Counted from the first letter of the stretch, positions 4,469 through 64,000 are shown. The stretch: 64,000 nucleotides of DNA from a virus (IMGVR_UViG_3300031993_000051); one strand, 5' to 3'. A program made the numbers and translations. Notes: generated by a model not told the origin, from the letters alone.

Positions 4469-7400
4469 TTATTGAAATGACCATGTACTTGTTGAAGCAT
4501 CCCAATGTAAATCACCTTGACCCATCGCAGTAGTAAGGAAATCAAATAGCTTACCAAGCATGCTATTAGGATCAGCTTTATATGTTTTTGCAGAAACTGT
4601 ACCATCAGCAGAAACAATCATTGCATTTGATAATTCTACAACATTTGGATTTTCAATATCTGCATAATTTACACTATTACAATTTGGGTCAGATACATCA
4701 TGATTTGCACCACTAAAGAAATAACCGTCATATTCATATGCTTTAAGGCGACCATTACCAATAGCAAATATTATACCACTATTTGGTATTGCTACCATCT
4801 CATCATTAATCCAAGCAGATGTAGTTCTTACACAACCATCTACTTTTTGGTTATACTGACCCATAATAGTTTGATGCTGATTTGCTTTTAAGTATGCGCC
4901 AATAGTTGTGGAATGATGTCCTCTATTAACGTTACCTATACCCATACCAATCTGACAAGAACCGCTTAAACCATTATTATAAGTACCAATTAAAATATTA
5001 TTACTATAATAAAGGTCACTATCACTAAATAATGTATTTCTATCACCAATTAATACATTAGAATTATATTTTTTAGAAACACCATTGAGAACACCAAACA
5101 TATAGTTTCTATCATTATGATCACTAGTATGTCCTAGTATATTTCCATGATCTGTAATACCAAATAATGTACCTGATTTAGTTGCACCAAAATAGTTATC
5201 AGTACCAATAATAGCATTATCAGTAGTAGTACCAGCAGATGTTTTAATATAGTTATTAGCACCATATACGAAGTTACGGTCTAATCTGTTATTAGTTGGT
5301 GGGACAGTAATTTCTAATCTATTACCTACACCATAAACGAAGTTTCTACTTGCATTATTACTGTCTGTAGTTAAGTGCGCAGTTTCTGAGCCTAAATAAC
5401 CAACACTATTCATTTCACCTATAACATAGGTTCCAATTGAATTTTGAAGAGTATTACCAATACCACAGAGTAAGCATTCACAAAGATATTTAGCAATAAA
5501 GTCTCCATAGATAAATGAACGGTTTGTATACATAGCAACAGAATCGCTAAGGTCATTATAAGAATCGGTTTCATGCATATTACCAAAAATATAAGTTTCA
5601 TTGGTATTATATGCAGCTCCTTTAAATATTATATTATTTTTTAAGCATTGAGTAGCGCCATTTAAGCTAGAACAAAAATTATTCGGTTTATCTGTTCTAT
5701 AATATCCTTTGAATAAGAAGTTTTCTGTGGTATATCTGTTATTTGCTGAAAGGACAGAACCGAATAATACATTTTGTGTAAATACTGAATTAACTTGTTT
5801 TTCAGTATCAAATGTAGCAGTAACTTGTGAATTAATTATAATATTATCAGCTAGATATTCAACACCAGAGAAACTTAAAGTATCACAGTTTTCAGAACCT
5901 TGAGAATTTAAGAAGATATTTTCGGTGAAATATCCCTGTGCAAATGTTGGTGCATATGCTTTCAAGTCAGTATTATGAAGAATATTAGCATTAGCTATAC
6001 AAAAATGATCAATTTCAACTTTTCTGGAATTAAACATTATGTTTTTACTAAATGAACCATTAAAATAAGGCCAACCAATATGTTTATGTAATATTATCTC
6101 ACCATCATTACCAAGACTTTCCAGATTATATAGGAAGTTATACTCAATATTACCTTCTTCTGCAGAGAATGTATCAGGAAAATCTACACCATGAGCATAG
6201 TTTCCGTGTATTGTGGTTGCATATATAGATGTTGATCTGATATATTGTAAATCATAAAGTTTGTTATCATCAAATGAATGTGAAAATATATTTACAGAAC
6301 CATTTGCATGATTTATAATATTATTTGTTCCATAAGTTGAAATAAGTTTAAAATTACCAGGACTACCAACATTTTCAAAGTAATTATTATATAATGAACC
6401 ACTTAATTCAAACCTACCGCCACCACCGGCAACATGTTTAACGGTATTACGATTAAACTCACCACCACCTGAAATAGTTACATTAGAGACATCGTAAAAT
6501 TCGTTTCCAATAATTCCTGGCGATCCTTCATTGTAGTTTCTTATATATTTTACTCCACGAGCATGAGTAAAATCATTATCTTGAAATGGCATTTCAACAA
6601 ATTGATTACCATAATAAGTGCTACGAATATTGCCGTAATCTATTTTTACTGTAGCATTAGTAAATTCATTGTGTTCAAAACCATACTTATACCAATCATC
6701 TGGTTTATTAACACCAACAATAGTAGAAAAATATATTTTATTAAGACCTACACCAGCATCAGAATGACCAAGTGAAAAGTCATAGCCAGAAAAAAGTGAT
6801 AAAAATGCAATATTATTATGGCCATCAATACGCGAACGAATATTGAAATTTTGATAACCGATACTTCTAGTGTCAAATTTTACCGTATTACTATAATCTG
6901 GCAAATAATAATTATTTGCATTTAAGTTAGTAACACCTATTACGATATTTTCACCACCAGATGCTAATACTCCTTTACCAATTGCAATATCATAGTTACG
7001 AATAGCAGAGTTTTCAAGACCAAATGCTAATGTAAAACCATCGTTATTCTGGCTAGTACTATCTAATTCCAAATCACTTTGTGTGGTTTCGGAATAGTTT
7101 TTAGAACCGAAAATGAAAGCGTTTCTTGTAGTGTTGGCAGAGTTATCGTTACCAACAATAAAATTCTGCGTATTATAAACTTTTGTATTATTGTCTTTAA
7201 TTAATTTATCAGTGCTTTTAGATTCATTACCATTACCAATAATGATAGAATTACCATGTGCGGAGTTACCAGAACCAATATAGTAATTATTATCGCCTTC
7301 TATATCAGTATCATGATCTTCAGACCAGTTTTTCCAGCTATTGCTGGCACCTTCAAGATCTTGCAATAATTCTATAATTTTATCATCACGATTCTTTAAC

Positions 7401-7513: not shown

Positions 7514-7639
7514 ATTAAGTCCTTTTTTAATCTTATCTTATTTATAATATTTTCTGGACATTATAAAATATTATTTTAAAGAAATTTCAGAATTTATTTA
7601 AAATATGTTTACAAAATTCTATAAACCTTTTATATTTGT

Positions 7640-7935
7640 TTCATATTTTTTACATTAAAGTCCTATTACTGGCTCGGAGTTCAACTCAATGAATTGTCGG
7701 ATAAGTTTAGGCTAGTTGGAATCATAGGTGTGGTTCCAGGTAAAAACTAATTCACCATCGACGTATTACTATAGCATGTAATACTTTAAGCCGCCATTGG
7801 TATTGAAAGATGTAGCTGGAGTACAGGATGACCGACCCATAAGCTTTCAAATAAATCCACTTAGTCGAAGACAGATGATCTTTTGCCTATTTTCCTAAAT
7901 AGGCTTATTGTCTCAGAACAGATATTTTGAACGTG
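7640..7935. other. GC-enriched non-coding segment with several hairpins (candidate structured RNA) inside a divergent promoter region
   Basis: No ORF over about 400 nt between divergent genes. Local GC is clearly above the surrounding AT-rich DNA. Inverted repeats include gtattac-tatagcat-gtaatac (7763-7784) and gcctattt-tccta-aataggc (7884-7903). Confidence 0.2.
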
Positions 7936-53628: not shown

Positions 53629-54981
53629 ATGGCTAATGATTTTAAATTTGGAAATAAAGCAATACAAGACTTGTATTTCGGCAACAAAGCCGTTTTACAG
53701 GTCTATTTTGGTGATAAATTAATCTGGCAAAAATTACAAAAAATACTTTTAACACAAAACGATAATGTGGTAATTGAATATGAACCTTCTGCAAATGAAG
53801 AAATAGAACATATATCTTGTTTCTTTAACCCAACGGATGATAATAGCACACAAATCTTTTTTAAGATTTTCCACGAATCTGGTCTAGTTGTAGCACAGGT
53901 AGGAAGTGATAGTATTGACTCCCAGGTTACAGAATTATATGAATTACAAGGTCAAAAAAGAATTGTAACATTAAATCCAAAACTAACATTACGTGCTGGA
54001 GAAAAATACTATTTCCAATATACTTATAATAATGGTGTTCAAATTAAACCAACTTATTTCCAAGGTATGACTGGAAACTATAAAGTATTTAGAAATAATG
54101 AAAATAAAAATGTAGCAAATATATCTTCATTAGGTGATTATCTTGGTTATGTAGATGATTTAGGCGATTTTATGGAAGCATCTAATAATGATTTTATGGT
54201 TTGGGATGTTAATGGAGAAAACCTTACACAAGGAAATGTCTATGTTAGAGGCAGTCAAACTTGCACAAAGTATTATGGTAATTTAGGTAGTGGTTCGTAT
54301 GGTGGTGCAGAAGCACAACAAATTTATTTTATGCAAGTTGGTGAAATTTTTAAATGGACTGGTTATAATGGTGCCGGTGATGATAGATTACATTCAAATT
54401 ATTTTTATAGAAGATTAGACTATCCTATGAAACTGTATACAACAGAAGTTAATTTAAACAACTATTCAAATAATATGCAAAAAATAACGGCTGTTATTCT
54501 TGGAGCAAGTAAAAAGAATGATGATGAAAATACGGCCGGTGCTAAATTTACAGGTAACATTTGGGGATATGCTCCATACTTTGACAACATAATTTACACA
54601 TTAAATGATGGATATACTGTTGATTTTGACTGGGCAGATGCAGATGCAAAAACACTTGTTTTGGAAAATGACCCTGGTACTTATGTAGAAAAAAGATTTT
54701 ATTATATGAATCATAATAATACTGCAGGGCTATACCTTTATCTAAATGGTAATTTAATATTAATGAATGAATATAATGGTGCACATCAAGAAGGTCAATA
54801 TGATAGAATCATTGACTATATAACTGAAGTAGATGCTCTTAATGCTGTAACAGAAGTAGGAACAATAACTTCATTTATTTCAAATACTTTTGATGGAAAC
54901 TATTATTCAAATAATTTTAGACAAGCGTCATTAGAAACAACAAAGAAATTTTATCTACAAATTGATGGTAGAGAGGTTTAA
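53629..54981 (+). CDS. hypothetical protein (candidate distal fibre / receptor-binding component)
   Basis: 450-aa ORF directly downstream of the fibre genes. Confidence 0.35.
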   Translation: MANDFKFGNKAIQDLYFGNKAVLQVYFGDKLIWQKLQKILLTQNDNVVIEYEPSANEEIEHISCFFNPTDDNSTQIFFKIFHESGLVVAQVGSDSIDSQVTELYELQGQKRIVTLNPKLTLRAGEKYYFQYTYNNGVQIKPTYFQGMTGNYKVFRNNENKNVANISSLGDYLGYVDDLGDFMEASNNDFMVWDVNGENLTQGNVYVRGSQTCTKYYGNLGSGSYGGAEAQQIYFMQVGEIFKWTGYNGAGDDRLHSNYFYRRLDYPMKLYTTEVNLNNYSNNMQKITAVILGASKKNDDENTAGAKFTGNIWGYAPYFDNIIYTLNDGYTVDFDWADADAKTLVLENDPGTYVEKRFYYMNHNNTAGLYLYLNGNLILMNEYNGAHQEGQYDRIIDYITEVDALNAVTEVGTITSFISNTFDGNYYSNNFRQASLETTKKFYLQIDGREV

Positions 54982-56377
54982 AATGCATCAGTTTTATGCT
55001 ATTGAAAAATTTACAAAAAAATTATTATATCAGTCAGCAAGTTTATATTTGCTAAAAGATATGATTAAATTTAAAGGACTAACCGAGAGCGATTGTATTA
55101 TAACAGAGGATGTAGATATGAAGTACATATCACGAATTGTTTATGTGGATGGTGAATGTGTTTATAACAATAAAGAATTTTGGGTAAATTCAGCTCCTGA
55201 AATTTTAGAGAATTTTGAAGAACACGAAGTTCTTGATTTTATGGATAAACCAGTTGATAAATTTAGATTTGAAACTGAATATAATTCTAATTCATCAAGA
55301 ATTTCAAACATTGATGGTGTAGCGGGCGAAGTTGACTATAACATCACAGTTGGTAACGAATTCATTTCGTTGTTCCGTGAAGAATGTATCTTCACTGACT
55401 TCCAGACGGTCACACCGCTTGACATCGCTCAGAAACTTCTAACAGTCATCTCGCTTGTTCAGACAGGTTCATTCCGAGAAGCAAAGATAGTTTTGAAGAC
55501 AGTAGAGCCTGATGCATTCTTGACAGCTGAACGTTTGAAGAAGTATGAAGACATGCTTGATGCCGCTGACGCAATAACTTACGCAACAGCTGAAGATTAC
55601 TTTTATACAGCCGCTGACATTACAGAAGAACAACTTGAAGAAACATATCAAAGAATTTATGGAATGTTTACTTCGGAAAAGAAAAGAACTGTAAAATATA
55701 TTCTTCCACAACTTTCCGAAACTGATAAGATTATTTACTTGATTAGACACTCTGAAAGAGGAAGCGATACATCTCAGAATGGCGATTTAACAGATAATGG
55801 TATTACATTAGCTCAGAATTTTGGTAAGTTGATAACACATGGTTATGAAACTTCTAGTGGTGCCGTTAATTGTGAACCAAATAATGCACATTATTTCTCT
55901 ACTGATTTTGCAAGAACAAAGCATACTGCTCAAATTATTGCAGAAACTAGAGGCGATACTGATTATGCTAGTTCTGACTATGAAAATATTACATTAATTG
56001 ATAATTTAATTGCTGGTGATAAATTCTGGGATGCGCATACTTCTGCATTGAAGACATATGCTTATCATCCTGAAGATTTAACTGAATCTCAACTTGAATC
56101 TTTGGGCGTTTCTACAGTAGAAGAAGCAATAACTAAGAGACAGAACGATTTTGAATCTATTAACCAGAGCTTAATTGCATTAGCTGATAAACGTTTAAAT
56201 GTAATGATTACACATGATTATTTCTTATATGTTTATCTTGGTGCTGCAGTTTATACCGATGAATCATGTACAAATCCGGCAAATGTTTGTTCAGAAGTGA
56301 ATTATCTTGACGGCGCAGTAATTATTATACATGATGATAAAACTTATGAAGTATATCCAGTAGATTGCACACCATAA
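54962..56377 (+). CDS. protein with C-terminal histidine-phosphatase (PGM/SixA-like) domain
   Basis: IIYLIRHSERGSD (RHG-type catalytic motif) and a later MITHDYF. The N-terminal ~250 aa are unassigned. Confidence 0.45.
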   Translation: MMVERFKMHQFYAIEKFTKKLLYQSASLYLLKDMIKFKGLTESDCIITEDVDMKYISRIVYVDGECVYNNKEFWVNSAPEILENFEEHEVLDFMDKPVDKFRFETEYNSNSSRISNIDGVAGEVDYNITVGNEFISLFREECIFTDFQTVTPLDIAQKLLTVISLVQTGSFREAKIVLKTVEPDAFLTAERLKKYEDMLDAADAITYATAEDYFYTAADITEEQLEETYQRIYGMFTSEKKRTVKYILPQLSETDKIIYLIRHSERGSDTSQNGDLTDNGITLAQNFGKLITHGYETSSGAVNCEPNNAHYFSTDFARTKHTAQIIAETRGDTDYASSDYENITLIDNLIAGDKFWDAHTSALKTYAYHPEDLTESQLESLGVSTVEEAITKRQNDFESINQSLIALADKRLNVMITHDYFLYVYLGAAVYTDESCTNPANVCSEVNYLDGAVIIIHDDKTYEVYPVDCTP

Positions 56378-56400
56378 TTAAAAATACATAAAATAAAAAA

Positions 56401-56428
56401 GGTAAGTCAATTAAGACTTACCTTTATA
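56401..56428. terminator. bidirectional intrinsic terminator
   Basis: aggtaagtc-aatta-agacttacct, between convergent genes. Confidence 0.55.
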
Positions 56429-56449: not shown

Positions 56450-56878
56450 TTAGCCAACGTTAAATTCAACCGGACGGGCTTCAGGACAGACCGGAATGTT
56501 GATGGTCAAGAGACCATTTTCAACCTTAGCGGTGAGTTCCTTCATGCTGAGGTTAGCCGGAACAAAGATCTTGATAGAGAGCTTACCGCTACCCTTGATC
56601 TTACGAACTGTGTAAACACGCTTTGCTTCAGCATCCTTTTCAGCGTCGGTGACTTCCTTCTCAACAGTTTCGATAGTAAGATATGCCTTACCGTCTTCAA
56701 TGGTGCCCTTGAGCTTGATGTCTTCACGGGTCTTACCAACGACTGCAACTTCAATAGTGCTCGAACCATCTTCTTCGTGAATGATGTTGAGCGGGACATT
56801 GACCTTTTCAGCAGTGTCATTAAAAGATGCATCGAATGCATTGAGTTCCTTGAGAAGATTTTCAAAAATATTATTCAT
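56450..56878 (-). CDS. Hsp20/alpha-crystallin small heat-shock protein
   Basis: C-terminal AKVENGLLTINIP matches the alpha-crystallin AxxxNGVLTIxxP hallmark. Codon usage is markedly GC-richer than the neighbouring genes. Confidence 0.65.
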   Translation of the reverse strand: MNNIFENLLKELNAFDASFNDTAEKVNVPLNIIHEEDGSSTIEVAVVGKTREDIKLKGTIEDGKAYLTIETVEKEVTDAEKDAEAKRVYTVRKIKGSGKLSIKIFVPANLSMKELTAKVENGLLTINIPVCPEARPVEFNVG

Positions 56879-57026
56879 AGTATTCTATCCTTTCGAGACC
56901 TTACGTGTCTCTTTTCGTTTCATTGTTAAGACATAAATCACATTTGTGTATTCATGTTTTAATTGGCGAAACTAACCAATTAAACTCTTGTTAAACTCAT
57001 TTTCGTTATATTTATAACGAAAATTT

Positions 57027-57482
57027 TTACGATGTCGCCATCATGAGTTTCTTGTAATCAAGGTAATTCTTGATAGCGAAAGATAAATTCTTTATGTTAT
57101 TCAGTGTGTTTTCGATGAATTCCAAAAAGTATTTCTGTTGGTTGACCTGTTTTAGTTTTGCTACATAAGGAGTACAACAATTAATCTGAGAATCAATTTC
57201 TTTTGCTGTTTCCCAAAATTCATTGATTGAGATATTGTATTTCTTTTGTAATTCCACTGTATTTCTAGGTCTTTTGAAACACTTTGTCAAATCACCGTAT
57301 AATTCCAACAATTCTACATTTAAGCTTGCACAGACATATTTTTGGTCTTGATACAATTTAATCCATTCTTGAATAACAGCTGGCAAAATATTATTCTTTT
57401 TAATAATTGCCTCCAAAGTATCAGGCATAGATAAATCTGTTTTTGCTTTTTCCTCAACTTGTTTAAACGTCTCTAAATTCAT
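57027..57482 (-). CDS. hypothetical protein
   Basis: 151-aa ORF whose stop overlaps the NUDIX start. Confidence 0.4.
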   Translation of the reverse strand: MNLETFKQVEEKAKTDLSMPDTLEAIIKKNNILPAVIQEWIKLYQDQKYVCASLNVELLELYGDLTKCFKRPRNTVELQKKYNISINEFWETAKEIDSQINCCTPYVAKLKQVNQQKYFLEFIENTLNNIKNLSFAIKNYLDYKKLMMATS

Positions 57483-57925
57483 ACCTTATTTATGTCACGC
57501 TCTTTGTAGCGTTTAATGCAATCGGCTACGAGCGGTCCCAAACTTCTGTAATATGTTTGGGTAGCGGTGTCATCAATCAGTTTGTAATCATCTACTTCCA
57601 AAGGAGTTCTTCCTTCGAAATTGAAAGTAGTAGAACAGCTTAAGTCTTTAAGATTGATGTCAGTTTCTGCGACATAAAGATGTAAATCTTTATACTTGGT
57701 ATATAAGAACATACCACAGTCATAAAGATCAGATTCGGTAAGTATAATATTAGCTTCTTCTTTTAATTCACGTAAAGCTGTTTCTACATGAGTCTCGTTA
57801 CCTTCTACATGTCCCTTGGGAATATCCCAATTACCGTCTCTATATGAGTGACAAGACGGATGACATGCCAAAAGCTTACGAGATGCTTTATCAATAATAA
57901 TTACACCACAACTAATAGCCTTCAT
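57479..57925 (-). CDS. NUDIX hydrolase
   Basis: GHVEGNETHVETALRELKEEANI matches the Nudix box Gx5Ex7REUxEExGU. Confidence 0.75.
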   Translation of the reverse strand: MKAISCGVIIIDKASRKLLACHPSCHSYRDGNWDIPKGHVEGNETHVETALRELKEEANIILTESDLYDCGMFLYTKYKDLHLYVAETDINLKDLSCSTTFNFEGRTPLEVDDYKLIDDTATQTYYRSLGPLVADCIKRYKERDINKV

Positions 57926-57987
57926 ATAATTCCTTTATCACAAATATAGTAAAAACGGTTGGTTTTGTAAACGGTTAAAGATTTATT

Positions 57988-58299
57988 TTAAATATATTCC
58001 GGATGAGTATCTTTAATATGCTCATATTGGTTCATGAGACTAACATAAAATTCAGAAAGCTTGTCAATTTGCATATTAAGCGTTTTAGACTTGTCTTTTA
58101 CAGTAGGTATAGATTCTTTCGCCTCTGCAAAAGAAACAAGTTTAAACGGCGTTTTAAAGCAATCTGGATGCGTTTCGCTAATACCCTTTAAAAGATTATA
58201 CTTCTCAGTATAAAACTCCTCCAGGGTATGCATACGGTTAGTTAAAGTCTCATTAGTAGCCTCTTGACGAGCTACACTTTCGTTTAATGTTTCTGCCAT
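57988..58299 (-). CDS. hypothetical protein
   Basis: 103-aa ORF. Confidence 0.4.
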   Translation of the reverse strand: MAETLNESVARQEATNETLTNRMHTLEEFYTEKYNLLKGISETHPDCFKTPFKLVSFAEAKESIPTVKDKSKTLNMQIDKLSEFYVSLMNQYEHIKDTHPEYI

Positions 58300-58308
58300 A
58301 GAATTTCC

Positions 58309-59607
58309 TTAAATACTGTAGTTAGGATTCTTGACCTTGAACGAAACGTTATAGTCGTCACGAAGTCTAAGAACGAAACCTTCTCTCTTATGACTGAGGT
58401 TGTTACCGAAAACGGTATTTGCATCAGATTCTTGAAGCATGATGTCAGCACCAGAAACGAATACACCCTTGTCATTTACATGACCTTCTGGTAATTCGTA
58501 ATTGTCATCAAGAACTGGAACGAACTTCAATCCCCATTGTTCAGCGAAAAGAACAGAATCTTCGAAATTCAACTTTTCCCACTTGAACAATACCTTTCTA
58601 TTTATAGTATCTTCAAAATAGACTTTCTTGTAAAAGTCGAAGAAGATAATATCAGTTCTTGGAAGGTTATAGATATTCTTTTGAATACCTGGACCGACAT
58701 GTTCACCACGGCAGAACCATTCACCTGGAATCTTCTTGATTTTTTCATCAAGTCCAAGTCTAAGAACAGTGTCCCAGAAAGCCTTTCCAGAACCGTTCTT
58801 ATTAAGTTCCCTAGTCCTAGAGCATACACCGATTCTCTTAGATTCCACATTGCGATGGAAAATCTTATCGAACCAACTTGGTTCAACCTTTTCAGAGAAA
58901 ACAGTAATGTTTTGACCTTCGAGTTTTTCAGTCTTAACCCATTTCTTACCCTTGTATTGTTCAAACATCTTGGTGTAAACCTTTTGGACGTTTTCTTCAT
59001 CAGACTTTCCAGGGTTAGTTGGATCCCAAGTTTCAGAAACGTTATGACGCTTTCTCCAATTACGATACCAAGTATATCTCATAAGTTTGCGAACAAACCA
59101 GTTATCCTTTTTACCAGTATTAAGACCAGCTTCTTCTTCATCTTGAACAATTTCAGTGATACCAAATTGAAGAGTATAATCCTTACCAACCTTTGCATCA
59201 GTAATGCCAAGGTCAGATGGCTTGAAAAGAATACCTTGAGAAATAACTCCAAACTTTCCGAGCTTCATACTCTTGATTTTGAACTTCTTATCTCTGAGAA
59301 ATTCAAAATATGGGTACTTAGAAGATTCTTGAATTGCCTTCAAAGCAGCTTCAATTTCTTCCTTTGTAGCATCTGCTAATTCTCGACCTTCCTTGATAGC
59401 AGTATATTTAGCACGAAGTTCATCAGACAAACCATCTGGAAGCAACGAGTCAATTTCGACATACATTGCCAAATCACCAGGCTGATATTCACCTTTCTTA
59501 ACGACTACGGTATAATCCATAACTGTAGCAAGTTCAATTCTGTCCGCCCCAGGAATCTCTCGGATATCCTTAATTCTTACAATATATGCTAATGGTTTTC
59601 CAAACAT
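58309..59607 (-). CDS. Rnl2-family RNA ligase-like nucleotidyltransferase (putative)
   Basis: EKLEGQNITVFS resembles ligase motif I (T4 Rnl2 EKIHGTNFS, catalytic Lys). The N-terminal IVRIKDIREIPGADRIELATV module is like bacterial/phage Rnl-type ligases. SD GAGGT. Confidence 0.5.
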   Translation of the reverse strand: MFGKPLAYIVRIKDIREIPGADRIELATVMDYTVVVKKGEYQPGDLAMYVEIDSLLPDGLSDELRAKYTAIKEGRELADATKEEIEAALKAIQESSKYPYFEFLRDKKFKIKSMKLGKFGVISQGILFKPSDLGITDAKVGKDYTLQFGITEIVQDEEEAGLNTGKKDNWFVRKLMRYTWYRNWRKRHNVSETWDPTNPGKSDEENVQKVYTKMFEQYKGKKWVKTEKLEGQNITVFSEKVEPSWFDKIFHRNVESKRIGVCSRTRELNKNGSGKAFWDTVLRLGLDEKIKKIPGEWFCRGEHVGPGIQKNIYNLPRTDIIFFDFYKKVYFEDTINRKVLFKWEKLNFEDSVLFAEQWGLKFVPVLDDNYELPEGHVNDKGVFVSGADIMLQESDANTVFGNNLSHKREGFVLRLRDDYNVSFKVKNPNYSI

Positions 59608-59633
59608 TTTATTATTACCTCTTTGTTGATTAC

Positions 59634-59662
59634 AATATAGAAAAAGGGGTGACTTTCGTCAA
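59634..59662 (-). promoter_or_regulatory. sigma-A-type promoter TTGACg-N17-TATATT embedded in a GGGGTTGAC hairpin
   Basis: Minus-strand reading: ggggTTGACgaaagtcacccctttttcTATATTg. Confidence 0.45.
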
Positions 59663-59690
59663 CCCCCTACACATGATTAAAGGATAATCT

Positions 59691-59921
59691 TTAATATATA
59701 GCTTTGAATTTTTCAAGCATTTCTTCAACATCCATTCTGAATTTTACAGAACAACCAAGTGGAATAGTATCAATTACTGACTTTTTCCAAACATTAATTG
59801 TCGCATCGAATTCTTCAGGATCATGAAGTTCTGGTGCATCGTCGAGTTCATATGCAATACTGTCGACTAATTCTTGAATTTTGTTAAACTTTTCTTTTAC
59901 TGTATTTTCAACTGCAATCAT
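59691..59921 (-). CDS. hypothetical protein
   Basis: 76-aa ORF. Confidence 0.35.
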   Translation of the reverse strand: MIAVENTVKEKFNKIQELVDSIAYELDDAPELHDPEEFDATINVWKKSVIDTIPLGCSVKFRMDVEEMLEKFKAIY

Positions 59922-60189
59922 TTATTTCCTTTATGTTATTGGTTAGGAGTTCATGATTATTAGCAAGAATAGTATACTCAGCTGCATGGACAAACATATC
60001 AGTTTCATATTTTTCATCTATGTCCACCTTAGAAGGATCATAGTCTGAAACTACTCCCCTACTACAGAACTCCATAAAACCTAATATTTTATAACGTTTG
60101 TCTATAATATAGAAATTTATTACATGGGCGTTGATGACCCTAGTAATTTTTTTCAAAATTTTCACTTTCTTGCTAAAAAGAAAAGACAT
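59908..60189 (-). CDS. hypothetical protein
   Basis: 93-aa ORF. Confidence 0.35.
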   Translation of the reverse strand: MSFLFSKKVKILKKITRVINAHVINFYIIDKRYKILGFMEFCSRGVVSDYDPSKVDIDEKYETDMFVHAAEYTILANNHELLTNNIKEINDCS

Positions 60190-60398
60190 TATTTAAGTTT
60201 CCTTGCATACTTTTCACATTTTTCTGCAATATTTTCCCATTTATCACGCATTTCACAATTATATGACCAATTTTCATAATAGCAATCAGCATTATGGTCA
60301 AAAATATTGGCAATATAACGTGCCATCTTTGCACGAGAAATGTATAATTCGTATTTAGACATAATGGTTATAATATTCTTTTTCGATAGTAAGGTCAA
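60189..60398 (-). CDS. hypothetical protein
   Basis: 69-aa ORF. Confidence 0.3.
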   Translation of the reverse strand: MTLLSKKNIITIMSKYELYISRAKMARYIANIFDHNADCYYENWSYNCEMRDKWENIAEKCEKYARKLK

Positions 60399-60780
60399 CT
60401 TCTTTTTGAATAATCTTTACATTATCCTTTGTAGGATTTGCAAATCCAACAGAACCTCCGAGCGGTGACCAGAAAATAACATCATGTTCTCTGGAAATAC
60501 CTTCATCAGGTTCCATAAATTCTACCTTGTCGATTAGACAAGTTTCAAAAAGATGATTTCTTGTTCCAATATCAGTAATACCTTCTACAACAGCAGTCTT
60601 GATAATCGGCTTTGTAAAATACATGTAAAGCGTAGGAATTCTAAAATCGATGGGAAGTTTATTTTCCTTTCTCCAATTCTGAATTGCTGCTCTGATTTCA
60701 GAACCAATCATTGCTGTAACAACAGAATGATTCTTTTTCTTTTCATTATTATAGATATAAACAGGTGTTTTAACTGACAT
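60355..60780 (-). CDS. hypothetical protein (weak dUTPase/dCTP-deaminase-like C-terminus)
   Basis: The start is re-set to the ATG at 60780 (MSVKTPVYIY; SD GGAGA). The track's TTG start at 60831 falls inside the promoter hairpin. SPLGGSVGFANP faintly resembles dUTPase motif 5. Confidence 0.35.
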   Translation of the reverse strand: MSVKTPVYIYNNEKKKNHSVVTAMIGSEIRAAIQNWRKENKLPIDFRIPTLYMYFTKPIIKTAVVEGITDIGTRNHLFETCLIDKVEFMEPDEGISREHDVIFWSPLGGSVGFANPTKDNVKIIQKEVDLTIEKEYYNHYV

Positions 60781-60802
60781 AAAATTCTCCAAAATTTTAC
60801 AA

Positions 60803-60831
60803 AATATAATAAAAAATAGGGTTGTTGTCAA
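60803..60831 (-). promoter_or_regulatory. sigma-A-type promoter TTGACA-N17-TATATT in hairpin tagggttg-ttgt-caacccta
   Basis: Perfect hexamers and spacing on the minus strand. Confidence 0.5.
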
Positions 60832-60840
60832 CCCTACTTT

Positions 60841-61158
60841 TTAGTCATTAGCTAATTCTATAATTTTTTCACGTAATTCGTCAAATGATTTAAAATCAGT
60901 TCGATCAATTACACGTTTACAACCGTCACCTAAATGGTCATGAATCATATAAAGCATTGGTTTTGATAGACCAATAACGAAACGACGTCTAAACATAACC
61001 ATTTCAAGTCGGTCATCCTTACTGTCTTCATCGACATAAGAATTATAACCAAATGAATGTCTGAGTTCAAATGTTATTCCGGCTTCAAACAACTCATCAA
61101 TCAAATTATGCATTTGAGTTTTGAGTGGTTCTGTCCAGTTATCAATTTCTAAACTCAT
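60841..61158 (-). CDS. hypothetical protein
   Basis: 105-aa ORF. Confidence 0.4.
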   Translation of the reverse strand: MSLEIDNWTEPLKTQMHNLIDELFEAGITFELRHSFGYNSYVDEDSKDDRLEMVMFRRRFVIGLSKPMLYMIHDHLGDGCKRVIDRTDFKSFDELREKIIELAND

Positions 61159-61159
61159 A

Positions 61160-61363
61160 TTATTCGCCTAAAAGTGTAATACCGCCTTGAGCATTATTAT
61201 AGCTTACTACAGTACCACCACGATGATCCATAATAACAACATTATTAACACCTTCAGCTTTCAAAAGTTCTGCGATAACAGTATTATACTTTCCAGGTTT
61301 TTCCTGTTCTACTGACATTTTAAGCAGTGTCGTAATGAGTGAATTAAGTTTCTTCTCGTCCAT
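61160..61363 (-). CDS. hypothetical protein
   Basis: 67-aa ORF. Confidence 0.35.
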   Translation of the reverse strand: MDEKKLNSLITTLLKMSVEQEKPGKYNTVIAELLKAEGVNNVVIMDHRGGTVVSYNNAQGGITLLGE

Positions 61364-61364
61364 A

Positions 61365-61565
61365 TTAATCCTTATTTAAATGTTCTAATAAATTTGATAA
61401 TACAATTCTAGCTTGTTTCCTATATAATTCTGTGCTGAAGTCATGATATGTCTCTTCTATCTTATCAAGAAGCTTCATAAATTTAGGCATTTTCATAGAA
61501 TCACTATTTAATGATTGTGTTTCTATTTCAACTTTAGTTTTAGGAGCACTTCGCCAATTAAGCAT
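61365..61565 (-). CDS. hypothetical protein
   Basis: 66-aa ORF. Confidence 0.35.
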   Translation of the reverse strand: MLNWRSAPKTKVEIETQSLNSDSMKMPKFMKLLDKIEETYHDFSTELYRKQARIVLSNLLEHLNKD

Positions 61566-61589
61566 ACTTTACCTTTATATTTAAAATAA

Positions 61590-61618
61590 AATATAGCAAA
61601 ATAGTTGTCTGCTGTCAA
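61590..61618 (-). promoter_or_regulatory. sigma-A-type promoter TTGACA-N17-TATATT
   Basis: Minus-strand reading: aggggTTGACAgcagacaactattttgcTATATTtta. Confidence 0.5.
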
Positions 61619-61621
61619 CCC

Positions 61622-62455
61622 CTAATTTTCAAGGTATCTGAAATGATAATTATTTGTCTGCTTATATTTGCCATTACAACACCAAATAATACAATGTTTA
61701 TTTAAATTCATTTGTCTTGCTGCTTCAGAGGCAGATTCAAAAACTTGTTGGGTCTCAATGCAAAGAACTTGTTTTTTATTTGGTTTTGTTTGTCTACAAT
61801 AATATTGTTTTAATGTTATATTATGTTCTTTTAAATATTCATCTACCTGCTGACATGATTCAATAAATTCATTTATATTATCAGATATTTTACAAAATCT
61901 ATAATTTATCGCATATTTGTCTTGATTAATTATAACATGTCTAATTGAATCTTTACAAATACCTAATTCTTTTGCCGCTTTACCTATTGATGGATAATAT
62001 TTGTTCGTTTCATAACAAAATATAACTATTTGATTAGGATCTATTTTATACTTATTAATTTCTCTAATATTAATTAATTGTTCTTCTGTTAATTTACGAC
62101 CAGTATTGGCTTTTCTAATTTTTTCTTTTTGTTCTTCAGACATTATAAAATGTCTTCCTAAATTACCATCACCGCCTAAAGTTTTATTATAACCAAAATT
62201 TTTATCTGCTGAATTATATAAATTTATCCAAAACTGTTCTCTTTCATTTAATAATTCACGTTGACATTCTTCGATAATTTCAAATTCAAAATTATTTGTT
62301 CCATATTTTTCAAATGCTCTTGCTAAATGTGGATTTAATTTCGCATTTGGTGATAATTCTTGTCGCCATCGTCTATTAATGTCATTAGATTGACCAATAT
62401 AACATTTACCATTAATTTTATTTGTTATTTTATAAATTCCACAAATTTTTGTCAT
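61622..62455 (-). CDS. GIY-YIG homing endonuclease (I-TevI-like)
   Basis: CGIYKITNKINGKCYIGQS...RRW...E (the GIY-YIG motif). Long C-terminal DNA-binding extension. Confidence 0.8.
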   Translation of the reverse strand: MTKICGIYKITNKINGKCYIGQSNDINRRWRQELSPNAKLNPHLARAFEKYGTNNFEFEIIEECQRELLNEREQFWINLYNSADKNFGYNKTLGGDGNLGRHFIMSEEQKEKIRKANTGRKLTEEQLINIREINKYKIDPNQIVIFCYETNKYYPSIGKAAKELGICKDSIRHVIINQDKYAINYRFCKISDNINEFIESCQQVDEYLKEHNITLKQYYCRQTKPNKKQVLCIETQQVFESASEAARQMNLNKHCIIWCCNGKYKQTNNYHFRYLEN

Positions 62456-62603
62456 AAATTACCTAAAAGAAAAACGGTTAGAAATCGTTATTGTGGTAGT
62501 TACGAAATCTAACCGTTTTTAAAACTTAGATATTTTAATAAGAATAAAACTACCACATATTATTCTTTTATAATATATTTATAATTTTATTCTTTTAAAA
62601 TAA

Positions 62604-63350
62604 TTAAATGCCAAAATTTTCTAAGAAATAATCAGGAAGCTTTGGATTGAAATGTTGAATACGTATCGTTTCCAGTTTAAATTTTCCTGCATTATACGCA
62701 CGAATAATCTTATCGTAATTTGGACCTTGAATACCTTTTCTAATAAGTTCATTAACTTCATGATATGTAAAGCCTAACTTTTCTTCGTCAGAAAGTGGTT
62801 GAAGCCCATCAATCGGTGTTTTATGCGTAAGTTCATATGGAAGTCCAAGGTCATCACCAATTTCGATAACTTCTTCCGTGGTTAGCATATCAATCGGTGC
62901 AAAGGAACCACAAGTATCTCCCCAAAGCGTAGCATAGGAAACTATATTTTCGCTGCGATTGCATGTGTTAGCCATTAACCAACCATTAGTTTGTGCTGTT
63001 ACCATAATCTGATTAGTACGAAGCCTTGCACCAACATTTGTCTTAGCATCATAAGACTTGTCTGCACCAGGAACAAGCGCCAAAGATTCCTTGACAAGTG
63101 TTTCAATATCTTGAACATCATAACTAATGCCAAGATGATCAACTAATTGATAAGAACAAGAAATGTCTTTTTGAATACCACATGGAAGCAATATGCCATG
63201 TACATGCTCTTTACCTAATGCTGCTGCACAAATTGCTGCTACTACACTAGAATCTTTGCCACCAGAAATACCAAGAACCGCGTCGGTTTTACCTACACGA
63301 TTAAAAAAATCTGCTGTCCAATCTATCACGTTTTTAGTTAATGTCTTCAT
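62604..63350 (-). CDS. nadE: NH3-dependent NAD+ synthetase
   Basis: PP-loop VLGISGGKDSS. Aligns along its length with E. coli NadE (ARLRTNQIMVTAQ, WGDTCGSFAPID, PLSDEEKLGFTYHEVNELIRKG, HFNPKLP). Confidence 0.85.
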   Translation of the reverse strand: MKTLTKNVIDWTADFFNRVGKTDAVLGISGGKDSSVVAAICAAALGKEHVHGILLPCGIQKDISCSYQLVDHLGISYDVQDIETLVKESLALVPGADKSYDAKTNVGARLRTNQIMVTAQTNGWLMANTCNRSENIVSYATLWGDTCGSFAPIDMLTTEEVIEIGDDLGLPYELTHKTPIDGLQPLSDEEKLGFTYHEVNELIRKGIQGPNYDKIIRAYNAGKFKLETIRIQHFNPKLPDYFLENFGI

Positions 63351-63574: not shown

Positions 63575-63634
63575 AATATATCCTTTTTAAAATGTCTGGC
63601 ACAAATATAGTAAATTTTACTTAAATTGTAAACC

Positions 63635-64000
63635 TTACTTCTTTTTTAATAATTCAGTAAATTTATCGGCTAATTTGCCAGCATCTGATTTTTCTCTTTC
63701 CTGAAACATCGGATCAACTTTCTTTTTAGGAGGAGTTGATTTTGCTTTAGGATAATGTTGTGGAAAATTACCTTTAATTTTTTGTCTTGGATATGATGAG
63801 TCACGTGCAGACATAAAGCTATTGAATCTTTTATCAATATCATCAAGATTTTTTTCAACCTGTTCGATACCAGCTTCTATAGATTTAATAGTTGCATCTA
63901 CTGAATCTTCAACTCTTGGAATAGTCTTAATCCACTTACCAAATTTTTGATCTTGTGGTTCAGGACCAAGAACACGCCAGCCCATGCCTTCCATCATACC
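63635..64000 (-). CDS. hypothetical protein (5' end may extend beyond the window)
   Basis: ORF that is open to the window edge. Confidence 0.35.
   Translation of the reverse strand, partial: GMMEGMGWRVLGPEPQDQKFGKWIKTIPRVEDSVDATIKSIEAGIEQVEKNLDDIDKRFNSFMSARDSSYPRQKIKGNFPQHYPKAKSTPPKKKVDPMFQEREKSDAGKLADKFTELLKKK

Follow-up and report, generated by a model that had tools for sequence, protein, structure and literature searches.

What does the minus-strand gene block at one end of the viral DNA stretch IMGVR_UViG_3300031993_000051 contribute to the phage that carries it? The stretch that we analyzed, referred to here as the window, is 64,000 nucleotides (nt) long, and an initial annotation had singled out four co-oriented genes near its right end, encoding a small heat-shock protein (Hsp20), a NUDIX hydrolase, an RNA ligase, and the NAD+ synthetase NadE, as one candidate island extending from 56450 to 63350 and devoted to RNA repair and to the replenishment of nicotinamide adenine dinucleotide (NAD+) against host defenses. 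All four genes were recovered there on the minus strand by family profiles. However, the block does not stop at 63350. From 56450 to the window end, the minus strand is an uninterrupted run of open reading frames (ORFs) that continues beyond the window, and on the left the block is bounded by a terminator-like hairpin that sits between a plus-strand ORF ending at 56377 and the minus-strand Hsp20 gene ending at 56450, where two convergent blocks meet. The block also holds a UvsY-like gene, a GIY-YIG homing endonuclease gene, and about ten small ORFs without a family match (Table 1). We consider it likely that the block forms the distal end of an extended, hyperplastic early region on the minus strand of a T4-like jumbo phage from the ruminant gut, and that the region probably carries cargo of two kinds: genes of Preiss-Handler salvage, of which NadE is the only one inside the window, and ordinary T4-type accessory and core genes in transcription units of their own.

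The identification of NadE proved to be genuine. The protein passes the curated NAD+ synthetase model, carries an SGGKDS P-loop at residue 29, and falls within the N-type ATP pyrophosphatase fold. It has no glutaminase (CN-hydrolase) domain and matches only the synthetase part of glutamine-dependent enzymes, and its matches in the PDB include the canonical NH3-dependent enzyme 2E18 (E 3.9e-29) and the Francisella tularensis NadE 3FIU (E 3.8e-15). Through the exact NadE protein we found a 13.3-kb JGI/IMG-VR contig (L001/L031) that shares 3,549 nt with the window without a single mismatch and adds 9.35 kb beyond it. On this contig, 0.7-10 kb upstream of NadE and on the same strand, lie genes for a bacterial-type poly(ADP-ribose) glycohydrolase (PARG), PncB, and PncA. 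PARG resembles the Deinococcus (5ZDA, E 3.5e-29) and T. curvata (3SIG, E 1.6e-25) enzymes, scores 178 bits against TIGR02452, and has a macrodomain with the GGG-X6-8-QEE catalytic loop (GGGVTKGSNAQEE at residue 86). PncB matches the structure PDB 1YIR (E 1e-87). Both lineages of this phosphoribosyltransferase that occur among the phage and its relatives pass nicotinate-specific models and not Nampt models, and no Nampt was seen in the DNA examined. The third protein, which has an isochorismatase fold, is read as PncA; this is the weakest of the assignments. Its best PDB match is the nicotinamidase 3S2S (E 3.8e-4), with H80 and C146 aligned by the search tool, and its full set of motif residues, as read by eye, we take to be D9, D47/H49, H80, K114, and C146.

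NadE keeps the same company elsewhere. About 20 related viral contigs in IMG/VR, up to 424 kb long, encode NadE at 49-89% identity, and on these contigs NadE travels with PncB and PncA, often with the genes adjacent: PncB is often directly upstream of NadE, and in two more distant relatives PncA takes that position. Some of the related contigs measure 411-424 kb and therefore belong to jumbo phages, and the relatives derive from rumen and gut metagenomes. The window itself encodes a set of T4-type core genes (gp23, gp32, UvsW, UvsX, a DnaB-like helicase, and terminase) along with an anaerobic ribonucleotide reductase, NrdD/NrdG. At the DNA level, megablast gave no similarity to deposited phages, and sensitive blastn matched only fragments of homing endonucleases.

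A salvage route through NadE also calls for an adenylyltransferase. No NadD/NMNAT was found in a Pfam scan of the 52 window proteins (among the best 25 of 36 families) or among the proteins of L001/L031. In relatives, a gene that fuses an adenylyltransferase to an ADP-ribose-type Nudix domain recurs within the clusters of seven contigs (L022, L026, L034, L040, L043, L045, and L081). It lies between the RNA ligase gene and PncA in L022, directly upstream of PncB in L034, where PncB is 94% identical to that of the phage, 7-9 kb upstream of PncA in L040 and L043, and elsewhere on the 165-kb contig of L017. The closest of these relatives is L081, a 218-kb ENA contig (ERZ28018966 k141_1266179) that is 99.97% identical to a 191-kb contig from a metagenome-assembled genome (MAG; L079) and is collinear with the phage's contig at 92-95% nucleotide identity; here 8.6 kb separate PncA from the fusion gene on its upstream side. 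At least 475 proteins belong to the family, and the contigs that encode them reach 464 kb; of the 120 members listed, every one has PF01467 and/or PF00293, with a single truncated case. The AlphaFold (AF2) model of the fusion protein has a pLDDT of 90.1, and over its full length the protein matches 2QJT, a bifunctional NMN adenylyltransferase/ADP-ribose pyrophosphatase (NadM-Nudix; E 7.5e-16). Taken alone, the N-terminal domain is closest to NadD-type adenylyltransferases of nicotinate mononucleotide (NaMN), with TM-scores of 0.77-0.79 and a match to TIGR00482, and the Nudix domain matches the ADP-ribose-binding domain of NrtR. A search by sequence pattern, a method limited to the patterns used, found no adenylyltransferase in the 411-424 kb relatives. 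With the adenylyltransferase-Nudix protein present in relatives, the clade would therefore have a gene for each reaction that leads from nicotinamide to NAD+, and for this exact phage we infer the adenylyltransferase step from them.

Taken together, the genes very probably specify a deamidated (Preiss-Handler) pathway of nicotinamide salvage, as judged from family, structure, and synteny matches. PncA would convert nicotinamide to nicotinate, PncB would join nicotinate and phosphoribosyl pyrophosphate (PRPP) into NaMN, the adenylyltransferase would form nicotinate adenine dinucleotide (NaAD) from NaMN and ATP, and NadE would complete NAD+ from NaAD, NH3, and ATP. The third step would most likely be carried out by a phage NadD-like/ADP-ribose-type Nudix fusion, or by the NadD of the host if the phage has no fusion. 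The fused Nudix domain would split ADP-ribose into AMP and ribose-5-phosphate, and PARG, whose gene is interleaved among the salvage genes, would remove ADP-ribose from polymers or modified targets. Our analysis established gene identities, contiguity, synteny, and cassette structure, and we infer the enzyme activities and the order of the reactions. Effectors of bacterial immunity with NADase activity (Sir2, TIR, and SEFIR effectors) release nicotinamide and ADP-ribose. Through PncA, the nicotinamide set free by such enzymes would be returned to NAD+. NARP2, a phage pathway that rebuilds NAD+ from nicotinamide by the amidated branch of this logic, defeats NADase defenses (bioRxiv 10.1101/2024.02.11.579819). 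Because the two compounds that would be handled here are NADase products and NARP2 overcomes such systems, counter-defense is the most likely selective role, and we tentatively suggest that the value of the pathway may lie in keeping NAD+ up under depletion, much as NARP2 does.

How are these genes expressed? The TTGACA-N17-TATATT promoters that the initial annotation had described are present, and the motif TTKACR-N17-TATATT is strongly enriched, with nine sites across the window where 0.25 would be expected, five of them on the minus strand in the intergenic gaps of the block. Counting the contigs L031 and L081 as well, there are 15 copies of this early-type cassette, those of the window being at 2326, 7608, 25422, and 33841 (plus strand) and at 57971, 59662, 60831, 61618, and 63632 (minus strand). 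The consensus, GGGTT(G/T)ACA-N17-cTATATTT, is followed by a Shine-Dalgarno (SD)-like AAGGA. A cassette precedes PncB, the ORF after PncB, the PARG unit, the unit of NadE and a small upstream ORF of 47 amino acids (aa), and four more units down to NUDIX. When six cassettes were folded, four had the -35 element within a GC hairpin and a T-run after it (z -5.8, -5.4, -3.5, and -2.5), and each such cassette is therefore a terminator fused to a promoter; in the one with z -5.8, the terminator occupies 60843-60810 and the promoter 60831-60803. With its separate promoter/terminator cassettes the block is therefore a series of early-type transcription units, at least five in number, and not an operon. 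No Rfam family is significant within the block.

This arrangement resembles that of PeSLs, composite cassettes of T4-like hyperplastic regions that were reportedly described by Arbiol in 2010. PeSL terminator/promoter cassettes are known from such regions in T4-like phages (Comeau 2014, PMC4122927). As in PeSLs, a hairpin, a T-run, and an early sigma70-like promoter lie between small variable ORFs, and the modules that the cassettes flank differ between near-identical genomes. The consensus here is its own (GGGTTGACA-N17-cTATATTT). The free-standing homing endonuclease, a mobile insertion, is present in some relatives and absent from others at the same site. Two PncB lineages with 36% mutual identity occupy the same slot in L038 and L039, on backbones that both share 98% PncA identity with the phage, which points to in-situ xenologous replacement. 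Both the presence or absence of the endonuclease and the two PncB lineages in one slot fit shuffling mediated by the cassettes.

The RNA ligase was described initially as Rnl2-like, but its domain order argues otherwise. An OB domain (residues 6-59) comes first and the nucleotidyltransferase domain (residues 222-426) second, which is the Rnl5 order, whereas Rnl2 has the nucleotidyltransferase first and the Rnl2 C-terminal domain after it. Both domains align to the Rnl5 ligase NgrRnl of Naegleria gruberi (5COT, E 2.1e-15), NgrRnl entries are the only RNA ligases among its PDB matches, the rest being at chance level, and TIGR02306 (the DRB0094 family) is matched at 87.5 bits, below its curated cutoff. 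The protein shares with NgrRnl and with DraRnl of Deinococcus the N-terminal OB and C-terminal nucleotidyltransferase domains and the KxDG-type, EGxV, and KxK motifs (here K228-LEG, E409-GFV, and K424-V-K), and differs from them in having about 90 aa more between the domains and KLEG in place of KLDG. Rnl5 ligases such as NgrRnl and DraRnl seal nicks in duplexes, and we know of no role for them in tRNA anticodon repair. The proposed parallel with the phage T4 answer to anticodon nucleases is not supported, the ligase belonging to a class without a demonstrated role of that kind. As in the T4 system of Rnl1 and polynucleotide kinase (Pnk or PNK), there is an RNA ligase here, and relatives have a candidate kinase/phosphoesterase and Rnl1-like ligases; the window ligase itself is not an Rnl1. 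Rnl5-type ligases occur in 279 deposited phage records, and a cultured Aeromonas T4-like phage has one in its gp32-frd-td early region, near RnlA and Pnk and with no NAD genes nearby.

Several relatives have no Rnl5 within 10 kb of their NadE, yet RNA ligases of three non-orthologous kinds recur within a few kb of the NAD genes. In L022 the ligase is Rnl5, flanked by PncB and the adenylyltransferase; in L034 an Rnl1-like ligase (T4 Rnl1 2C5U, E 8e-8) is directly upstream of the adenylyltransferase-PncB pair; and L024 has a different Rnl1-like ligase and a metallophosphoesterase beside PncA. The window yielded no PNK. In L081, a gene at 4528-5607, directly upstream of that for the adenylyltransferase-Nudix protein, encodes 359 aa in which a metallophosphoesterase is joined to a P-loop kinase (GIPGSGKST); the product weakly matches the kinase domain of T4 PNK (E 0.02) and is a candidate PNK-like, RNA end-healing enzyme. 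Partners of the kind that had been suggested for the block do exist: PncA, PncB, and PARG lie on the contiguous contig, and the NadD-like adenylyltransferase-Nudix and PNK-like genes in the 92-95%-identical relative. Given how RNA ligases recur, to call them unrelated neighbors of the NAD genes may be too strong, and the recurrence may reflect either a common accessory region or a functional link.

The NUDIX hydrolase, too, has a different affiliation from the one first proposed. It belongs to the family of T4 NudE.1 (gene e.1) and has its fixed place beside a UvsY-like gene, not beside the NAD genes. Its NUDIX box (residues 38-60) is intact, GX5EX7REUXEE with N for the final G, it shares phrog_1185 with RB69 NudE (E 4.4e-74 for the RB69 protein), and BLASTP aligns these two at 34% identity (E 5e-13); by tblastn it matches 792 phage records, and T4-like phages contribute many nudE genes to these. 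The AF2 model (pLDDT 94.4) has the decapping enzyme Dcp2, YmfB, Ap4A hydrolases, and RppH as its nearest PDB folds, with the proviso that Nudix subfamilies differ little. We considered whether the protein might be a detached ADP-ribose-hydrolyzing domain of the NadM type and rejected this, as only the Nudix box aligns (12/30 residues, E 0.002) and the two fall into separate PHROGs. The start of the UvsY-like gene overlaps the NUDIX stop by 4 nt, so that the two genes are predicted to be translationally coupled. They are found in this order in 18 related loci, directly in 14 and after a ~2-kb insertion in the other four, and in most of these loci convergent plus-strand genes come after the UvsY-like gene, while NUDIX and NadE are separated by anything between 4 and more than 9 kb. 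NUDIX is anchored to UvsY and to the plus-strand boundary. The window protein is like T4 NudE.1 in its PHROG, its intact catalytic box, and its size (148 aa against 152 aa for RB69 NudE), and unlike it in sequence (~34% identity) and in its coupling to a UvsY-like gene, RB69 nudE being beside the lysozyme gene e. T4 NudE.1 hydrolyzes ADP-ribose, Ap3A, and FAD and decaps NAD-RNA in vitro, and from these activities a link of the window NUDIX to NAD chemistry is possible by analogy.

Several observations weigh against a dedicated NAD+ salvage pathway in this phage. On the phage's own DNA the adenylyltransferase gene was not seen, the contig ending 185 nt upstream of PncA. PncA itself has weak family matches (Pfam E 2.6e-8, on a fragment, the low-scoring PDB match given above, and no match in NCBIfam), and the PncA proteins of relatives match PRK11609 below its cutoff. 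In three relatives that share one architecture (L014-L016), NadE has neither PncA nor PncB within ±10 kb. Moreover, the NAD genes do not form an operon, being spread over at least 10 kb among many unrelated ORFs and served by separate promoters. The recurrence of RNA ligases beside them counts against a division into unrelated units.

If the pathway is real, it may serve ends other than counter-defense, or run in another order. The main rival is general metabolic augmentation, in which a phage of an anaerobic host would raise or maintain NAD+ simply for itself, be it for NAD-consuming enzymes, for the cycles of ADP-ribosylation that PARG implies, or for redox metabolism, with no specific part for NADase immunity; we regard this as possible but somewhat doubtful. 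The same region in relatives is rich in metabolic genes (for M18 aminopeptidase, radical SAM enzymes, FMN reductase, and an adenylosuccinate-synthetase-like protein), NAD-jumbo phages have many NAD-consuming enzymes (PMC11662467), salvage of the NARP2 type overproduces NAD+ even without a defense system, and the presence of PARG implies a turnover of ADP-ribosylation that would release nicotinamide without any host NADase. Yet the pathway is entered, via PncA, at nicotinamide, a NADase product; the fused ADP-ribose-type Nudix would suit the recycling of the other; and every phage NAD+ pathway tested so far (NARP1-3) is a counter-defense. The two explanations are not mutually exclusive. As to order, NadE might work as in Francisella, amidating NaMN to nicotinamide mononucleotide (NMN), which the adenylyltransferase would then turn into NAD+. 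That the short, ~250-aa NadE also matches the F. tularensis enzyme and that the whole fusion resembles the NadM-Nudix proteins of Francisella and Synechocystis would agree with this scheme, but NadE is nearer to the canonical 2E18 and the adenylyltransferase domain alone best matches the NaMN-preferring NadD, and we think the Francisella-type order unlikely.

A different question is whether the RNA ligase, NUDIX, NadE, and Hsp20 act jointly, as originally envisaged. What stands of that proposal is that the genes are co-oriented and share one promoter type, to which the three kinds of ligase near the salvage genes of L022, L034, and L024 and the candidate PNK of L081 may be added. What does not stand is the single functional unit. 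The genes are divided among separate cassettes and transcription units; their neighbors are mixed, with the UvsY-like core recombination gene and a homing endonuclease interspersed; NUDIX is of the NudE.1 and not the ADP-ribose-hydrolyzing family, and keeps with UvsY whether or not NAD genes are near; and Rnl5, of a class that seals nicks in duplexes, is missing near NadE in several relatives and is found among nucleotide-metabolism genes in the cultured T4-like phage. We therefore consider joint action of these four genes decidedly improbable. A broader version would be a combined locus against abortive infection, in which a fourth, deamidated NAD+ route with PARG opposes NADase immunity and is coupled to an RNA end-processing half. 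Such coupling would explain why non-orthologous RNA ligases recur beside NAD genes, but we see it as an unlikely arrangement; its RNA half would comprise Rnl5/Rnl1-like ligases, a PNK-like kinase/phosphoesterase, and a decapping-type NudE.1 Nudix.

Deamidated salvage with a tentative role in counter-defense can be set beside the phage systems already known. Like NARP2 (Nampt and Nmnat; NadV/NatV in Vibrio phage KVP40), it would build NAD+ out of nicotinamide, PRPP, and ATP by means of classical salvage enzymes, and the adenylyltransferase-Nudix fusion of the relatives has the NadM-Nudix/NatV architecture; it differs in being a predicted four-step deamidated route (PncA, PncB, adenylyltransferase, and NadE). 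With NARP1 and NARP1-AP (Adps and Namat, with or without the Macro-domain phosphatase Adpp) it shares a macrodomain-fold enzyme that accompanies phage NAD+ genes, but the macrodomain here is of the PARG type, with a GGG..QEE loop, and not of the Poa1p type. With NARP1 and NARP3 (PnuC and NadR) it shares the general logic of restoring a depleted metabolite. No Adps/PRPS-like protein, Namat, PnuC, or NadR was found in the ~73 kb examined, nor any Adps or Namat domain among the proteins of L040. Conversely, none of NARP1, NARP2, NARP1-AP, and NARP3 uses NadE, PncA, or PncB, and a 2022 survey of viral NAD+ systems listed only NadV, NadM, and NadR. Among 50,697 deposited phage records, PncB occurs in 13; it adjoins NadE in a 735-kb huge phage (in a record without annotation) and in Sinorhizobium phage Phosso (where both are annotated), and PARG homologues are found in Lak megaphages and Bacillus phage G.

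The closest precedent comes from the same environment. Among 668 jumbo phages of animal guts, 174 are reported to encode a salvage or Preiss-Handler pathway in full (Li et al., Microbiome 2024, PMC11662467); that study described pncB-nadD-nadE clusters, mentioned pncA, and proposed, in silico, that they counter NAD+ depletion. The suggestion that a NadE route had not been described in phages consequently holds for the experimentally proven NARP1-3 and not for these published clusters. The clusters of that study and the locus described here have in common their origin in jumbo phages of ruminants and other animals and their clustered pncB and nadE, with nadD in the published clusters and a nadD-like gene in relatives here. 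What differs here is a bacterial-type PARG within the cluster, an adenylyltransferase fused (in relatives) to an ADP-ribose-type Nudix, dispersed PeSL-like cassettes, two swapped PncB lineages, and RNA ligases that recur nearby; the main text of PMC11662467 makes no mention of a glycohydrolase, macro domain, RNA ligase, or Nudix.

Table 1. Features of the minus-strand block and of the salvage genes upstream of it. Coordinates refer to the window; those marked eq. lie on contig L001 and are given as window equivalents.
Feature	Position	Strand	Evidence and remarks
Terminator-like bidirectional hairpin	56398..56425	both	11-bp stem, T-runs on each strand; left end of block
Hsp20/alpha-crystallin small heat-shock protein, 142 aa	56450..56878	-	Pfam HSP20 E 2.5e-6, 28 bits vs 20.8; phrog_432 E 5.9e-7
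UvsY-like recombination mediator (probable), 151 aa	57027..57482	-	phrog_231 E 1.7e-6, full length; Pfam UvsY 17.7 bits, below the 22.8 cutoff
Nudix hydrolase, T4 NudE.1 (gene e.1) family, 148 aa	57479..57925	-	PF00293 E 1.1e-11; phrog_1185 E 3.7e-26
Early-type promoter TTTACA-N17-TATATT before NUDIX/UvsY	57943..57971	-	without hairpin; fold no better than shuffles
ORF, 103 aa	57988..58299	-	in close relatives, invariably the next gene downstream of Rnl5; unmatched in Pfam, PHROG, and NCBIfam
ATP-dependent RNA ligase, Rnl5 type, 432 aa	58309..59607	-	PF21189 E 6.7e-19; PF09414 E 2.3e-12
PeSL-like terminator/promoter cassette before RNA ligase	59625..59680	-	TTGACG in GC hairpin, T-run, TATATT; z -2.5
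Four small ORFs (76, 93, 69, ~141-158 aa)	59691..60780	-	no family match; patchy in relatives
PeSL-like cassette	60795..60850	-	15-bp hairpin, TTGACA in loop, T-run, TATATT; -18.8 kcal/mol, z -5.8
Three small ORFs (105, 67, 66 aa)	60841..61565	-	no family match
Early-type promoter TTGACA-N17-TATATT with TG extension	61590..61618	-	motif match
GIY-YIG free-standing homing endonuclease, 277 aa	61622..62455	-	PF01541 E 2.8e-12 and NUMOD domains; TIGR01453 103.8 bits vs 56
Structured 148-nt spacer downstream of NadE	62456..62603	-	two long hairpins; U-run after the second (terminator-like)
NadE, single-domain NH3-dependent NAD+ synthetase, 248 aa	62604..63350	-	PF02540 E 1.7e-40; TIGR00552 136 bits vs 63.65 cutoff
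Predicted membrane peptide, 47 aa	63431..63574	-	kept directly upstream of NadE in relatives
Early-type promoter TTTACA-N17-TATATT	63604..63632	-	likely promoter of 47-aa ORF and NadE
ORF, 128-133 aa, 3' part, no function assigned	63635..64000	-	start beyond window end
PARG, bacterial-type	eq. 64033-64845	-	PF10021 E 9.6e-33; begins 33 nt past window end
PncB	eq. 70369-71652 (L001 1699-2982)	-	NF003704 451 bits vs 379 cutoff; TIGR01514 381 vs 269.55
PncA candidate, 195 aa, isochorismatase fold	eq. 72975-73562	-	PF00857

Some features within and around the block deserve separate mention. Hsp20 stays beside the UvsY-like gene in close relatives. The spacer between NadE and the homing endonuclease gene is strongly structured, with a minimum free energy of -45.8 kcal/mol against -17.0±3.0 kcal/mol for shuffled sequences (z -9.7), and has no Rfam match; it may be a terminator that also regulates expression of the endonuclease. 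Between PncB and PARG (L001 3083-8503; window equivalent ~64848-70268) there are about ten small ORFs, mostly predicted membrane proteins, among them two paralogues of 177 and 147 aa, and none has a family match. We asked whether these membrane proteins could be a niacin or nicotinamide riboside transporter (PnuC or an ECF S-component) and rejected the idea, there being no Pfam support and no detectable paralogy. In four relatives, a gene directly upstream of PncB encodes a short (374-aa), divergent adenylosuccinate-synthetase-like protein (L011 7321-8445; also L032, L033, and L043), which Pfam recognizes at E 1.8e-23 and which scores below the cutoffs of both the PurA and the PurZ models of NCBIfam. 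The protein could be a PurZ-like enzyme for modified adenine; no such gene was seen in the ~73 kb of this phage.

The remainder of the window (1-56377) also encodes two SPFH/Band-7 proteins, a cadherin/Big_9-domain protein, a PQ-loop protein, and a DHH phosphoesterase. At its left edge, a 185-aa plus-strand ORF (40-597) matches only positions 61-201 of the 215-position profile of the T4-type terminase N-domain, and the large terminase gene may be split or interrupted there. The 471-aa ORF at 54962-56377, in which RHSERG was noticed by eye, was considered as a histidine phosphatase and set aside, since it has no PDB or NCBIfam match and no similarity to a relative's His_Phos_1 protein. On the plus strand at 7757-7863, within an intergenic region between divergent genes and some 120 nt downstream of the early-type promoter match at 7608-7636, there is a full-length match to the cow-rumen-2 RNA (RF02947; 102.8 bits, the gathering score being 66, and E 1e-18), and this orphan motif, which had been known from metagenomes only, is thereby placed in a T4-like jumbo phage.

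PncB was also encountered, at 99-100% identity, on contigs of 173-191 kb (JAFQXD010000042.1, which is L079, and JAFRFB010000097.1, or L080) inside two goat-gut MAGs labeled 'Methanobrevibacter sp.'. An archaeal host, as this binning would imply, was judged unlikely: the conserved -35 and -10 elements with their 17-nt spacer, the SD sequences, and the hairpin-plus-U terminators look bacterial. The placement in Methanobrevibacter is probably a mis-binning of low-GC phage DNA (the GC content of the window is ~32%). Bacteroidota hosts have been predicted for all Kuafu-clade phages (PMC11662467).

So far, the phage pathways proven by experiment to rebuild NAD+ against NADase immunity are NARP1, NARP2, and NARP3 only. 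Since the idea of Preiss-Handler clusters in gut jumbo phages has already been published from metagenome annotation, the added value of our analysis is modest; it lies in an exact map of the gene cluster and of its cassette architecture, in the PARG and Nudix-fusion components, and in the recurrence of RNA ligases beside NAD genes. The fused ADP-ribose hydrolase and PARG are enzymes of interest in their own right, the latter hinting at the handling of ADP-ribose derivatives. If our reading is correct, a complete route from nicotinamide via nicotinate, NaMN, and NaAD to NAD+ in abundant jumbo phages of the rumen would be a fourth way for phages to restore NAD+, and one that is directly clonable.

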